Assembly (NCBI GenBank): GCA_029258835.1
Contig: JAPDJY010000056.1
Span: 1 to 32,762, forward strand
Direction of reading: 5' to 3'
Origin: Thermoproteota archaeon
GTDB taxonomy: Archaea; Asgardarchaeota; Jordiarchaeia; Jordiarchaeales; Freyrarchaeaceae
DNA: 32,762 bases
This document shows, one piece after another, positions 4,490-29,079 of this stretch (its first letter is position 1; the number at the start of each line of letters is the position of its first letter). The position numbers and the translations under genes were made by a program. The notes under the pieces were generated by a model. It saw nothing but the letters and a program-made list of their open reading frames with translations, did no database searches and was not told the DNA's origin.

Positions 4490-4615
4490 TGGCGGGCTGG
4501 GCGGGATTCGAACCCGCGACCGCCGGGTTAAAAGCTTCGCCCATGGTCCGGCGCTTTAGGCGAGCATTTAGATGCTCTACCTAGGTTCCCGGCTCCGCCT
4601 CTGAGCTACCAGCCC
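4490..4615 (-). tRNA. tRNA-Lys(UUU) with three non-canonical introns (approx. 15/16, 22/23, 30/31), CCA encoded
   Basis: Removing about 4600-4586, 4576-4556 and 4547-4536 gives GGGCTGGTAGCTCAGCCTAGGTAGAGCGCCGGGCTTTTAACCCGGCGGTCGCGGGTTCGAATCCCGCCCAGCCCGCCA, a complete cloverleaf. The first intron boundary is uncertain by 1 nt. Confidence 0.92.
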
Positions 4616-12439: not shown

Positions 12440-12479
12440 GAATAAGAAAGAAAACTCAAAGAAAAAGGAGGGTGAAATT

Positions 12480-13267
12480 ATGGCTTCACTTGAAGAAGGC
12501 AAGGTAGAAAAGGAAAAGACACCAAATTTTCTTGGATTACTTGTGTCGTATCTTCTAGCAGCATCTATGGTAGGAATTTGCCCCACTATAGTTTTAGTTT
12601 ATATTCTCCTAGACATAATAAAGTTACCGTTGTTTTTAGTGATCGCTTTAGCACCAGGATATTACGTTCTCACCAGATGGGTCTTTAACTTAACTCTGCT
12701 TTTCATAGCGAAACATTCGATACGTCCGGTTGAGGAAGGAGTACACGAAATGAGCATGAGCAATGTTAACGCCGTCAACTGGCTGCGCAATGGAATAGCA
12801 ACGTGTCTAGCCCTTCACTATATAGGGTTCGAACTAGTGTAGATGCGTTCTACACTAGGAATAAACCGTTCGGTATGCCCGGGCTTGGAAGCTTGGTTCT
12901 GAGGGCACTAGGGGCAAAAATGGGGCGAGGCGCTGTGGCATCGTTCGTTGCAGATCCATACCTAATAGAAATGGGAGACGGGTCCATAGCAGGGGGAGGT
13001 TCGATAATTTCAGGGCACGTATTTGATAGAGGAAAACTGAAGATAGGAAAAGTTAAGATAGGGAAAAACGTGGTTATAGGAGGCAACGCGGTAATATTTC
13101 CAGATGTTGAGATAGGTGATAACTCTGTCGTCGGAGCGCTGTCATTAGTAACCTCGGGAACAAGGATCCCGCCAAACCAGGTTTGGGGGGGAATACCGGC
13201 AAAACCGGTCATGACTGTAGATGGAAAGCCCTTAAGTAACATGAGAGAAAGCAAGGAAGAAACTTAA
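12480..13267 (+). CDS. Membrane-anchored left-handed beta-helix (hexapeptide) acyltransferase, interrupted by a predicted BHB intron; join(12480..12832,12865..13267), 251 aa
   Basis: The N-terminal ORF has two hydrophobic helices. The C-terminal ORF has LRALGAKMG, hexapeptide repeats (VKIGKNVVIGGNAVIFPDVEIGDNSVVG) and WGGIPA. The spliced length is 756 nt, in frame, with junction IGFE|PFGMPG. Confidence 0.85.
12833..12864 (+). other. 32-nt bulge-helix-bulge mRNA intron
   Basis: GG-GTTC-[GA|A]-CTAGTGTAGA-TGCGT-TCTACACTAG-GAAT-[AA|A]-CC: two 3-nt bulges, a 4-bp central helix and a perfect 10-bp inner helix. It contains the in-frame TAG. Confidence 0.85.
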
Positions 13268-13273
13268 AACATT

Positions 13274-14026
13274 TTAACCCATTAAACCGGGGAAATAGTA
13301 TTTTTCTCCATACGCATAGCTTTCCTCTTTTCTTGCAATCCCACTTTCCTCAAGTGCAGTGAGCGCGGCGTTAACACGTTCCTTCGACCAGCCAGTTTTT
13401 AACATAACATCCTCTGGAGTGACGTACCCTTTCTCGCTAGCAATGCTTAAAATCTCGTTTTGGTCGTCGCTCAGTTCAGCAGGGATAAAAACTACGATTT
13501 TAACACCCGATCTAAGTTGACGTAAACCAGGAATCACCTTCCTTTTCTCGAGCTCCTTAATCGCCCGCTCTACATCGTCTACTTTCACCTTGCCCCTTAA
13601 CCTTCCAGTATTTACTATAAGGTAAGCATCTCCGAGGGTCATTATACCTCCAGTTTCCTTGCGCTTAAGAAGAGCACGTTGATATAACAGTAATCCCAGC
13701 TTCTCGTAGTCTATTCCAACAGACAAACCTAGCATTTTCTTTTTCAATACTTCCTCCTCACTTATCACGTGGGTTATTACGGCACTTTCTGGTATACCAT
13801 ATTTCTCTCTGATTCTACTTATTTCACTTTGAAGTTTTGGGCTTGTAGCAATTATTACACCGTACTTCTCAGCGATTTCTTCAAGTTTACCTTTAATCTT
13901 TGTAGCCGCCTTAAGATCTTCCTCTAGTTCTTCAAGTTTTAGCTCGGCAGCTTTTCTTTCCATATGTTTTCTTCTTTCCATTCTCTCACGAATTTCACGG
14001 ATCCCCAAATCTGACAGCCCCAACAA
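13274..14026 (-). CDS. ESCRT-II Vps22/Vps36-like (EAP30 domain) protein
   Basis: N-terminal helical region, TGGIMTL..DDVERAIKELE first winged helix, ELSDDQNEIL..GYVT....TGWSKERVNAALTALEESG..YYFP second winged helix; adjacent to Vps28. Confidence 0.88.
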   Translation of the reverse strand: MLGLSDLGIREIRERMERRKHMERKAAELKLEELEEDLKAATKIKGKLEEIAEKYGVIIATSPKLQSEISRIREKYGIPESAVITHVISEEEVLKKKMLGLSVGIDYEKLGLLLYQRALLKRKETGGIMTLGDAYLIVNTGRLRGKVKVDDVERAIKELEKRKVIPGLRQLRSGVKIVVFIPAELSDDQNEILSIASEKGYVTPEDVMLKTGWSKERVNAALTALEESGIARKEESYAYGEKYYFPGLMG

Positions 14027-14029
14027 ATT

Positions 14030-14707
14030 TTAAAGCGATAAATCTTTAAGCCTTTGCTTAAAGTCGCGGTACCATCGATAAGCGTCGTACTCCATTTTCT
14101 TAGCGTCCTCTTGGTCTAAGACTAGGTCAGGAGGTAAGTCTTTCAAACGATTCCGCCAATCAACAACCTCTTTGTAGACCCAATAATTTTCACCTTCTAA
14201 ACCCGGAAATTTTTCAAGTTGGAGAGCTAATTCATCTAAGAGAGGGACAATAATGTCAATCCTAGCATAGTCGGTTAGTTGAAGCGAATCTATTAGCGTT
14301 ATTAAATTAGAAATCACATCGGCTGTTCTTGAGGCTAGCGCGGAAGGGGAAACCCTAAGAGCTTCCATAGGAATTTCGTCCTCAGACCTGACAGTAATAC
14401 CATCAGACGCGGCAAGCCGTAACCGTGAAGAAGCATAAGGATATTTTTCGAGAATACCATTCTCTTCTAAAAACTTTTTAAGATCGAAACCCTTACTCTC
14501 TAGTTTAGACCGTACGTTAATTATCTGCTTTATGTGCCATTCCAGCTGTTTCTGATATGTGATGGCGTCAATTAAACCGTTTTCATAGCTGCTAGTTAGC
14601 ATATCTAATGTTGCTATGCATGCATACAGTTCCCCCTCAAGGCTAAGCTGATTATTACCTCTCTGTCGTTCTTTAGCTTTCTCGGCGACTTTCATTTTTA
14701 GAACCAC
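14030..14707 (-). CDS. ESCRT-I Vps28-like protein
   Basis: ELYACIATLDMLTSSYENGLID..Y N-terminal core; LITLIDSLQL..IDIIVPLLDEL..VVDWRNRL..DAYRWY C-terminal helical bundle. Confidence 0.88.
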   Translation of the reverse strand: MVLKMKVAEKAKERQRGNNQLSLEGELYACIATLDMLTSSYENGLIDAITYQKQLEWHIKQIINVRSKLESKGFDLKKFLEENGILEKYPYASSRLRLAASDGITVRSEDEIPMEALRVSPSALASRTADVISNLITLIDSLQLTDYARIDIIVPLLDELALQLEKFPGLEGENYWVYKEVVDWRNRLKDLPPDLVLDQEDAKKMEYDAYRWYRDFKQRLKDLSL

Positions 14708-14710
14708 CCA

Positions 14711-15472
14711 CTAACTAGACTCAACCTCGCCTCGGAGGCTCTGAAGCTTCTTATTGACTATGTACCATTGCTTCTTGTATTTTCTGTATAGCCTAGTATA
14801 ATCTGTCGGATCTATTTCACCAGCTTCAAACTTTTCCTCGAGAGATCTTATGAGGTCTTCTATAGCGATCTTCTCGCTTTCTAATTCTAACTTTTCGTCG
14901 ACAGGAACTTTCATGCTAGTCTGAACGGTGCCGATGGCGACCTCCGCGTGGGTAGTTAACCTACTTCTGAGAGAGGCGATTGTTTCATCCTTCTCCTGAA
15001 GCTTACGTTGAAGTTCTTTTACTTGCCGTTCTAAAGCAGCAATCCTGTCAAGAAATTCGGATGGAGGCACCTCTGCACCTGACTCAGAGAGAGAAGGTAT
15101 AGGCGTCTTCTGAGGTTTCTTAAATAGAGGGCGGGGAGGAACCTTTGCGAAAACGCCCTTGAGCGTGTTTATTGCGTGATAAACGTGGTATTCCGGCTTC
15201 CACTGGTCTAGTATGCTTAAGTGGACCCTGCCTGTTTCCGGATCCACATTAGGATGATCTGTTGGCGAGATCATACGGATAATTGGAGGGTCAAATGGAA
15301 AAGTTGGAGGAATCTTAACTTCAACCTCGAATTTAAGTCCTCTATATTCACCTCTCCCTGCGATTTCACCTCTCCATATCGTTAGGTCGCCCTTGAACGG
15401 CGTGAATCCTTTAGCTCTCTCGTACATTAATTGGGCTTCCCGTGCAAGTATCAATTCAAAATCTTCAGTCAA
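14711..15472 (-). CDS. ESCRT-I Vps23/TSG101-like protein (UEV + coiled coil + steadiness box)
   Basis: E2 fold IPPTFPFDPP..HPNVDPETGRVHLSILDQW with His in place of the catalytic Cys, Pro-rich linker, coiled coil, and C-terminal AIEDLIRSLEEKFEAGEID..DY..LYRKY. Confidence 0.88.
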   Translation of the reverse strand: MTEDFELILAREAQLMYERAKGFTPFKGDLTIWRGEIAGRGEYRGLKFEVEVKIPPTFPFDPPIIRMISPTDHPNVDPETGRVHLSILDQWKPEYHVYHAINTLKGVFAKVPPRPLFKKPQKTPIPSLSESGAEVPPSEFLDRIAALERQVKELQRKLQEKDETIASLRSRLTTHAEVAIGTVQTSMKVPVDEKLELESEKIAIEDLIRSLEEKFEAGEIDPTDYTRLYRKYKKQWYIVNKKLQSLRGEVESS

Positions 15473-27439: not shown

Positions 27440-29079
27440 ATTGTTTGCATCGAGAATCATGGAAAGTACGGGATGTTATCTGGGGGGACGTGTTCCTTAC
27501 AGCTGAGGACAGGAGAATACTTGACACCTTTGAAATGCAACGGTTAAGAGGGATAAAGCAGCTGGATTTTGCTTTCTTAGTTTACCCAGGTGCAGAGCAT
27601 ACCAGATTCCAGCATAGCTTAGGAGTAAGGGCATGCGTCGATCGGATAATAAGTGCTTCAAAGTTACCGGTAGATGAGGAGGAGTTAAGGCTTGTTAGAG
27701 TTGCTGCGTTGCTCCATGACGCAGCAACACCAGTCTTCAGTCATGTAGTATCCGACTTTTTCCGTCGGTTCTACCCTGACATAATCCCACCACACGAGAA
27801 GTTCGTGGGGGAGGTACTTGAAGGCGTATGCTATGAGAAATATATCGAAAGGCATCCTGAAGCAGAAGGAGAAGTGCCTTCACTAAAGGAGGCGTTGCAA
27901 GAGGAGGGGTACAGCAGGTCTGACAGAAGGAAAATTGTGAGAATAATAACAGGCGAGTTTAAGCCGAAATACATAGCGCAGCTTGTCAATGGAGCGCTGG
28001 ATGCAGACCGTCTCGACTATCTGAAAAGAGACGCGTACTATACAGGTGTCCCTCAAAGCTACGATGACAGAATATTCTCGTCGTTCAACGTGGGTGAGGG
28101 TGACGAGCTAACGCTGAAAGTTAAACATGACGCTATAGGAGCAGCGGTAAGCGTCCTTGAAAGCCGCTTCTGGATGATGCAGAAGGTTTACCTTCACCTA
28201 ACGGTTCTAGCGGCAAATTGCTTAGCCTTAGAGATGCTGGTGAAGGCGCTCGGAGATTACGACTTCTATGAGCTCTTCTTCTTAGATGACGCGGAAATTC
28301 TTAACCAGTTTATAAGGTCAGAGGTAGAGGAAGTAAGGGTGCTTGCTTGCAGGATGCGTTACCGTAAATTACCAAAAAAGGCGTATGTGGCACATTTAAA
28401 GGAACTACCCGAGAAAGTTTCCAAGGCGGCTTTAGGGATGATAAACTACCATGAACTCCAGGATGAAATAGCCAATGAAGCAAAGGCTATAAATCCACGC
28501 TTGGAGATCGATGAAAAGGACATTTTCTTGTATCTTCCAAGAGACTACTATAAGGGGGCTGAGGAGGTGAGAGTTGGCGACGCCACGTTAGAAGAGTATG
28601 ACCCTAGCATAGTTCAAACTTTGAAGGCGAGATATGAAAGCTTAATGCAGGTGTGCGTATACGTTTCAAATAATGGATATGTTAAAACCGTAAATGACGC
28701 TTGTGTGAGACTATTCGGGGTTAAAAGCGACTACGATCCGAACACGAGGAGGCCGCCCCTAAGGAAAAAGGGGAGTGTGGATGAGGAAATACTGCGTTTC
28801 TTAAAGAAAGTTAGGGATGGGGCAAATTATGCTTTAAAGGCTCTTAGAACACTCGTGGAAGTTGCAGAGGCTTGCAGCCGGGACAAGCTAAGCGAGATGA
28901 TGGGTGTTGAAGCCACCACGGTTTCAACGTATCTTCAACAAATTTACAGGCTTCAAAAAATGCTAAGGCAGCCCGTCCTATTGAGGATGAGGGAGGGAAG
29001 GAAAATATTGTGGGAGGTAAACCCTAATTTGAGGGAGGGATTGCGGAGGGGCCTCAGAATGGTTGAGAGGGGGGAATAG
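27436..29079 (+). CDS. HD-domain phosphohydrolase (SAMHD1/YdhJ-like) with C-terminal HTH
   Basis: QRLRGIKQL, YPGAEHTRFQHSLG, LLHD, DADRLDYLKRD, VYLH; C-terminal SRDKLSEMMGVEATTVSTYLQQI helix-turn-helix. Confidence 0.88.
   Translation: MNCLHRESWKVRDVIWGDVFLTAEDRRILDTFEMQRLRGIKQLDFAFLVYPGAEHTRFQHSLGVRACVDRIISASKLPVDEEELRLVRVAALLHDAATPVFSHVVSDFFRRFYPDIIPPHEKFVGEVLEGVCYEKYIERHPEAEGEVPSLKEALQEEGYSRSDRRKIVRIITGEFKPKYIAQLVNGALDADRLDYLKRDAYYTGVPQSYDDRIFSSFNVGEGDELTLKVKHDAIGAAVSVLESRFWMMQKVYLHLTVLAANCLALEMLVKALGDYDFYELFFLDDAEILNQFIRSEVEEVRVLACRMRYRKLPKKAYVAHLKELPEKVSKAALGMINYHELQDEIANEAKAINPRLEIDEKDIFLYLPRDYYKGAEEVRVGDATLEEYDPSIVQTLKARYESLMQVCVYVSNNGYVKTVNDACVRLFGVKSDYDPNTRRPPLRKKGSVDEEILRFLKKVRDGANYALKALRTLVEVAEACSRDKLSEMMGVEATTVSTYLQQIYRLQKMLRQPVLLRMREGRKILWEVNPNLREGLRRGLRMVERGE

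Follow-up and report, generated by a model that had tools for sequence, protein, structure and literature searches.

The acyltransferase locus

The window analyzed here, a single stretch of 32,762 nucleotides, comes from an archaeon that had been taken for a probable Asgard member from its sequence and that is present in samples of hydrothermal or marine sediment. This is borne out: the host is Jordarchaeales-like, and ESCRT genes adjoin the acyltransferase gene described below. The ESCRT-like cluster lies directly downstream of that gene, on the minus strand at positions 13274-15472 of the window, and comprises an EAP30/Vps25-like gene, a VPS28-like gene and one that looks, by eye, like a UEV/E2 variant.

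The acyltransferase gene is laid out as two overlapping open reading frames (Table 1), whose coordinates and sequences are exactly as first described and which prove to be halves of one gene. The product of the first half is a hydrophobic N-terminal domain, apparently with two transmembrane segments; ORF1 matched no family in Pfam or NCBIfam. ORF2 encodes a left-handed beta-helix (hexapeptide) acyltransferase domain (PF00132, 2.8e-08; PF14602, 1.8e-07), and both the repeats and the TIGR02353 similarity that characterize hexapeptide-repeat (LbH) acyltransferases are present in it. Its best similarity in NCBIfam is to the C-terminal domain of the Pls/PosA synthetase (TIGR02353, 1.9e-23); since this score is far under the full-length cut-off, the likeness to Pls/PosA holds at the domain level only.

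Table 1. Features of the split acyltransferase gene and of other genes with BHB inserts in the same genome (positions refer to the window unless a contig is given)
Feature	Position	Strand	Description
ORF1	12480-12842	+	120 aa; stop codon TAG at 12840-12842
ORF2	12803-13267	+	154 aa; overlaps ORF1, in the +2 frame
Shine-Dalgarno-like motif GGAGGGTGA	12467-12475	+	Before the exon 1 ATG; read directly from the sequence
Exon 1 (predicted)	12480-12832	+	Codons 1-117 and GA, the first two bases of codon 118
Intron (predicted), 32 nt	12833-12864	+	Removal gives a 251-aa ORF, gapless relative to homologs
Exon 2 (predicted)	12865-13267	+	Third base of codon 118 (Glu), codons 119-251, TAA stop
Outer BHB helix, 5' strand GG	12825-12826	+	Pairs with 12866-12867; G-C pairs invariant in 7/7 variants
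Outer BHB helix, 3' strand CC	12866-12867	+	Exonic; first two bases of a Pro codon
Central 4-bp helix, 5' strand GTTC	12827-12830	+	Exonic; pairs with 12859-12862, one G-U pair
Central helix, 3' strand GAAT	12859-12862	+	Intronic
Bulge 1, GAA	12831-12833	+	Putative 5' splice site between 12832 and 12833
Bulge 2, AAA	12863-12865	+	Putative 3' splice site between 12864 and 12865
Inner hairpin	12834-12858	+	Perfect 10-bp stem, 12834-12843 with 12849-12858; 5-nt loop 12844-12848
TAG in the exon 1 frame	12840-12842	+	Within the intron; invariant in 8/8 lineages
EF-1alpha	Genome G000, contig C27, about 28838-28880 (L198), outside the window	-	43-nt insert in the P-loop, GHVDHG|KST
Four further genes with BHB inserts (L194-L197)	Genome G000, C8:8766; C6:26554; C19:4679; C1:136670	+; -; -; -	Inserts of 25, 36, 55 and 27 nt, in the order of the positions

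A bulge-helix-bulge element between the two frames

The region where the two frames meet folds into a bulge-helix-bulge (BHB) of canonical form, as had been proposed for it, with a 2-bp outer helix, a 4-bp central helix, two 3-nt bulges and a 10-bp inner stem. Archaeal BHB motifs are defined by 3-nt bulges on opposite strands with a 4-bp helix between them (PMC5829648), and we found exactly this 3-4-3 geometry in all seven variants of the element described below. Helices flank the core on both sides: the inner one, of 10 bp, is 94% paired and includes four covarying pairs, and the outer one has just 2 bp yet is invariant. As claimed from the window sequence, excising 32 nt that include the TAG restores the frame and gives 251 aa; the ORF joined after removal of 12833-12864 reads ..HYIGFEPFGMPGLGS.., the predicted exon join runs from ..GGGTTCGA to ACCGTTCGG, and the junction peptide would be HYIGFEPFGMPGLGSLVLR. 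A single copy of the hairpin is present in the window, and a single copy in the 2.72-Mb genome as a whole, so it is not a repeat element. No Rfam family matched the element or anything else in the window.

Both RNAalifold and minimum free energy folding favor another register, GGUU/AACC with an internal loop, over the BHB fold, which lies 1.1-3.3 kcal/mol above it. The two registers share the inner hairpin, and covariation does not tell them apart. We retain the BHB because the energy model penalizes bulges and because the gap is so small.

The mature junction, in which 12826-12832 would be joined to 12865-12867, forms a perfect 10-nt palindrome, GGTTCGAACC, that includes TTCGAA; the corresponding site is not palindromic in the intronless orthologs of the sister family. 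This palindrome may be a by-product of BHB symmetry or the trace of an intron insertion.

Orthologs interrupted at the same codon

A search with the C-terminal half of the protein found about 20 uninterrupted homologs of 250-260 aa in Freyarchaeota, Jordarchaeales and Lokiarchaeia. The original prediction expected the spliced protein to align with intronless homologs with no gap at the junction, and it does: the 251-aa product runs gapless against these intact homologs across ..LALHY[IV]G[FY][EQ]PFGMP.., so that the insert is an exact interruption of a conserved protein.

Among 40 related genomes, the closest orthologs, in G001 and G002 (sister genus, 82-84% identity), also have short open frames and carry their inserts at the same codon as the window gene; paralogs and remoter homologs in these genomes are intact. 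The N-terminal half retrieved six further truncated ORFs of about 120 aa (P0124-P0129). On every one of their contigs, which stem from more than 10 independent samples, the gene is likewise split and the gene order is the same: a T2SSE ATPase, a 284-aa ORF, the split gene, EAP30 and VPS28. When metagenome and genome collections were scanned with loose DNA patterns, most matches were bacterial and due to chance; the true orthologs among them were only three (L084, L100 and L124), none of which is a new variant. The insert is thus at the same codon in every ortholog found, namely seven distinct complete variants, which represent related lineages rather than independent samples, and one more (L039) that ends at the end of its contig. 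The split acyltransferase gene is syntenic with EAP30 and VPS28 in every examined Jordarchaeaceae contig that reaches that far.

In an alignment of the seven complete sequences (A1), 96.4% of the BHB cells are paired, and sliding the 3' partners lowers this figure to 35-48%. Four pairs of the inner helix have changed on both sides (C-G/U-A, G-C/A-U, U-A/C-G and A-U/G-C). The central helix is 100% paired, with one-sided changes G-U/G-C and U-A/U-G.

Intron lengths in the seven variants are 32, 31, 32, 32, 31, 31 and 31 nt, and hence the offset between the exon frames differs among lineages. Despite this, the ORF is whole again in all seven once the insert is excised at the bulges, and predicted splicing at the bulges is the only process that reconciles the two lengths.

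The lengths also bear on a translational explanation, in which the ribosome would pass from one frame to the other either by a programmed frameshift or by a hop from the Phe codon TTC at 12828-12830 to the Phe codon TTC/TTT at 12869-12871. The bypass in T4 gene 60 takes place in a layout of this kind, with a hairpin, a nearby in-frame stop and matching codons on either side, and the stable hairpin, close in-frame stop and matching flanking Phe codons of the present gene resemble it. A frameshift, however, would have to be -1 in the 32-nt lineages and +1 in the 31-nt lineages: we see no fixed direction of shift at a conserved slippery site, of the sort that characterizes programmed frameshifting, and reading through would add about 10 residues that are missing from all homologs. 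A hop from Phe to Phe would lose Glu-Pro-Phe, which the intronless homologs keep. Recoding also leaves unexplained why 3-nt bulges should stand four base pairs apart, and five other genes of this genome, described below, have BHB inserts of 25-55 nt without any such codon pairs. To our knowledge, bypassing has not been reported in archaea, and we regard recoding as a very improbable account of the locus.

The orthologs similarly settle where the predicted cuts would fall. For the window by itself, the mature sequence is the same whichever of the three bulge bases, first, second or third, precedes the cut; the position is fixed by the orthologs, not by the window sequence. Bulge 1 is GAA, GAG or GAT and bulge 2 is AAA, AGG or AAG among the variants, and a cut that follows the second base is the only one to yield both a Glu codon and an ungapped protein from every one of them, as read from sequence rather than from RNA ends. 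The rule applied at the outset, that EndA cuts after the second bulge nucleotide, gives this Glu in every variant and agrees with the published bond: in a solved EndA-BHB complex, cleavage takes place between the second and third bulged nucleotides (PMC12397907).

Same-codon inserts, compensatory changes and a gapless spliced product together uphold the proposal that a BHB intron of the EndA type lies in the acyltransferase mRNA. It is these comparative data that carry the case, and we consider them decisive. We put at roughly 0.9 the probability that positions 12480-13267 encode a single membrane-anchored hexapeptide-repeat acyltransferase of 251 aa, whose pre-mRNA would contain a 32-nt BHB intron.

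Selection on the exons and origin of the probable intron

Exon 1 has pairwise dN/dS ratios of 0.09-0.17 and exon 2 of 0.02-0.12, at dS values from 0.2 to more than 2. Such low ratios at high dS imply that the gene is functional and that the intron is old. Within the exonic part of the BHB, the synonymous sites of the codons GGG TTC are invariant in eight lineages, as compared with 11 of 13 other degenerate codons alongside that vary, which suggests that the exonic portion of the motif is constrained at the RNA level.

A pseudogene formed by a small palindromic insertion, or an assembly or sequencing artefact, would likewise show two ORFs that overlap out of frame and a stem that is perfectly palindromic. 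A pseudogene is at odds with strong purifying selection on both halves across lineages that are near synonymous saturation, and with an insert structure maintained by compensatory changes; a palindromic element is at odds with a hairpin repeated nowhere else in the genome. As to an artefact, the insert is present in more than 10 independent assemblies. The possibility of an assembly error, raised with the original prediction, was checked against independent DNA: contigs from three runs span the junction, include the 32 nt and are free of indels at that point; in one run the depth is 68. These contigs exclude an assembly error and say nothing about RNA. With exon selection and the compensatory changes, they effectively refute a pseudogene or an artefact.

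Programmed rearrangement, which would remove the 32 nt from the DNA of expressing cells and not from RNA, is to our mind equally remote. Nothing direct speaks for it, beyond the fact that contigs could miss rare DNA variants. The insert is present in all DNA contigs, its flanks have no recombinase-type repeats, and the structure that is conserved is an RNA-type BHB with G-U pairs, which would be meaningless in DNA.

A gene that is truly split deserves more attention. In this case, the locus would encode a 120-aa membrane protein and an acyltransferase of about 130 aa, initiated at ATG 12875 or at an upstream GTG, and the hairpin would be an intercistronic processing or attenuation element. Public gene callers do give two ORFs in all relatives, an ATG stands three codons past the junction, and the in-frame TAG is invariant. 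However, the Pro-Phe-Gly codons that precede ATG 12875 are conserved at the protein level with synonymous changes (CCG/CCA, TTC/TTT and GGT/GGC), so they are translated. Furthermore, the ORF2 frame, in its upstream parts, is not the same in the 31-nt as in the 32-nt lineages, so that no conserved N-terminal extension is possible; and, read from the sequence, no motif comparable to the GGAGGGTGA of ORF1 lies ahead of the internal ATG. A split gene would also leave unexplained the 3-4-3 bulge geometry, the restoration of the frame in all variants and the synonymous constraint on GGG TTC. We find it unlikely, if somewhat less so than recoding, and prefer a single gene with a BHB intron.

The intron-bearing genes form one clade (100/99). 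The best-matching genes of the sister family (Freyr-type) are intronless, with GGA TAC CAG|CCC at the site, and four of them share the upstream neighbor. One intron clade beside an intronless sister family indicates a single gain followed by co-adaptation of the exon, and places this gain, on the sequences compared, in the ancestor of the Jordarchaeaceae ortholog group. No intronless member of the intron clade was found among the full-length matches, the best of which reaches 68% identity, whereas the split orthologs are at 82-84%.

The TAG at 12840-12842 is invariant even where its pairing partners have changed or the stem has been remodeled (G001 type), which hints at selection on the stop codon itself. 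Two sister-family homologs, at G008:C166:20273-20671 (L005) and G006:C1:744027-744389, have single in-frame TAA codons inside the match.

Splicing machinery and proposed mechanism

A BHB intron requires that its host encode a splicing endonuclease and the RtcB ligase, and both are present here. Two genes match the EndA family (PF01974) above the cut-off, one a 190-aa ORF and the other an ORF of 308 aa from its first in-frame ATG. Inspected by eye, one protein has the catalytic Tyr/His/Lys and the other, listed at 308 aa, lacks the His. The EndA genes lie in the G000 regions C1:12233-12481 and C6:39796-40056, and RtcB, which scores 607 bits, at C1:78966-80273. A broad-specificity (alpha-beta)2 EndA has been reported in Asgard archaea (PMC5829648), and the two predicted subunits fit such an enzyme.

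We propose the following course of events. In the transcript, the exonic GG-GTTC would pair with the intronic GAAU and the exonic CC, and the fold would offer two 3-nt bulges, 4 bp apart, atop the 10-bp hairpin of the intron. The splicing endonuclease, with its two EndA subunits, would cut after the second base of each bulge; RtcB would then join the exons, ..GGG UUC GA with A CCG UUC.., thereby restoring the Glu118 codon and the frame, and would probably circularize the intron. Unspliced mRNA would stop at the conserved in-frame TAG and give a 120-aa, membrane-only product.

One metatranscriptome (X18) contains RNA from the gene: its sole contig covers 13003-13215, inside exon 2 and off the junction. 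Anatomy, conservation and covariation of the element have been observed, as have selection on both exons and the genes for the enzymes; from these we infer that excision and ligation take place in vivo.

Splicing might also serve as a switch, with the 120-aa membrane-only protein made from unspliced mRNA and the complete enzyme from the spliced form, at a ratio set by EndA/RtcB activity. The only hint in this direction is the invariant in-frame TAG, and we hold such regulation to be doubtful.

BHB inserts in other genes

Five other genes of this genome contain canonical 3-4-3 BHB inserts, of 25-55 nt. One is the gene for EF-1alpha, whose insert has a CGGC/GCCG central helix, AAT/AAG bulges, a 10-bp stem and an in-frame TAA; the Pfam GTP_EFTU coordinates are continuous around it (1-15, then 17-176). 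The other four genes encode an isoaspartyl methyltransferase, a FAD-binding oxidase, a tetraether-synthase-like radical-SAM enzyme and a PflX-like radical-SAM enzyme. Across the inserts, profile coordinates run 2-59 then 61-208 for PCMT and 1-80 then 92-139 for FAD_binding_4, and they are continuous in both radical-SAM enzymes, the tetraether-synthase-like one being split at CNLRCP|CF. Five of the six verified introns contain an in-frame stop, which in two of the five was imposed by the scan filter. Since EF-1alpha is essential, the organism must splice BHB introns from mRNAs, and this necessity raises considerably the prior for the acyltransferase intron. These predicted introns largely support the view that EndA and RtcB act in Jordarchaeia as a general system for splicing mRNAs, which in this genome would concern at least six coding genes.

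Genome-wide scans put the value of a single site in perspective. Controls with slid structures gave one or two matches of equal score per genome in a scan for a BHB with frame restoration, so that a single sequence alone is weak evidence. A first scan for BHB elements joining ORFs, with exons of at least 60 codons, found no enrichment over slid-structure controls; its filter left out genes whose first exon is short as well as elements with an outer helix of 1 bp. In a relaxed scan, the total counts were still dominated by background and the top matches proved real. When an all-Watson-Crick inner stem of 10 bp was required, only the acyltransferase site and EF-1alpha were left, versus none in four controls.

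The tRNA genes could not serve as a BHB control: ARAGORN predicts only 25 tRNAs in this 95%-complete genome, with erratic intron calls. In the window, it reports a tRNA-Arg with a 42-nt intron on the minus strand (4490-4615), and Rfam finds no tRNA anywhere in the window at its gathering score. The low ARAGORN count and the blank from Rfam fit heavily interrupted tRNA genes. On the same contig as EF-1alpha, a GTP_EFTU-family gene (G000 C27:25527-26153, minus strand, 464-aa frame) is interrupted within its domain match by a single TGA in frame, which could be a selenocysteine codon or another interruption.

Relation to known non-spliceosomal introns

The cbf5 pre-mRNA of Crenarchaeota was reportedly described by Watanabe in 2002 as carrying a BHB intron. 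Its distribution covers Desulfurococcales and Sulfolobales (Yokobori 2009, PMC2738675), and according to a 2020 paper, which also treats an intron in a Haloferax 5' UTR, cbf5 is alone among archaeal coding sequences in having a BHB intron (PMC7714728). The acyltransferase intron has much in common with that of cbf5: both are short, lie inside a coding sequence, are of the EndA type and lineage-specific, and are inherited vertically with inferred gain or loss, and in both cases gene callers mis-annotate the host gene as split. The intron sequences are unrelated, and the hosts differ, cbf5 encoding an RNA-modifying enzyme of Crenarchaeota and the present gene a membrane hexapeptide acyltransferase of Asgard Jordarchaeia. 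Splicing of cbf5 has been demonstrated experimentally, whereas that of the acyltransferase mRNA is deduced from sequence. The literature searched did not mention BHB introns in the mRNAs of Asgard archaea. Very probably, the acyltransferase intron is an mRNA intron of the cbf5 type in a new gene and a new phylum.

Two other sets of BHB introns can be compared. Freyarchaeia, Atabeyarchaeia and Jordiarchaeia carry an extreme load of tRNA introns (PMC11291895; bioRxiv 10.64898/2026.10.13.758758), and BHB introns have been gained with particular frequency in these groups. Their tRNA introns at non-canonical positions share with the acyltransferase intron the lineage, the motif and the small size, and presumably the enzymes. 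They differ in that the host RNA of the latter is an mRNA, from which the intron has to be removed with single-nucleotide precision if the frame is to be kept, and in that coding also constrains the exonic portion of the motif. The BHB intron of Haloferax volcanii HVO_1309 (PMC7714728) is likewise an EndA substrate in an mRNA; unlike the acyltransferase intron, it lies in the untranslated 5' leader and leaves the coding sequence uninterrupted.

A resemblance to HAC1/XBP1 splicing had also been suggested. It stands as far as a non-spliceosomal, protein-catalyzed reaction on a short, frame-switching intron is concerned, with ligation by an RtcB-type enzyme (in metazoans) or a tRNA ligase, and extends no further. 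Ire1 cuts at twin stem-loops under stress regulation, whereas the acyltransferase element is a BHB, the substrate of a tRNA endonuclease type of enzyme, and has a single hairpin within that BHB in place of the twin loops.

Implications for Jordarchaeia

Beyond cbf5, the acyltransferase intron extends the record to an unrelated gene, metabolic or membrane-related, and to an Asgard lineage, and its evolutionary history is well resolved: it was gained once, some seven diverged variants are known, helix pairs covary, and bases of the exons have co-adapted with the motif. Together with the five further introns, it indicates that the tRNA-splicing machinery routinely handles mRNAs in a group marked by runaway gain of tRNA introns. 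Standard annotation splits or truncates such genes, as does every public record of the acyltransferase gene. If splicing did prove to act as a switch, it would be an archaeal counterpart of the regulated cytoplasmic splicing of HAC1/XBP1, in the lineage closest to eukaryotes and in a gene beside an ESCRT cluster. These genes offer a testable system for how protein-spliced introns colonize coding genes in close relatives of eukaryotes.
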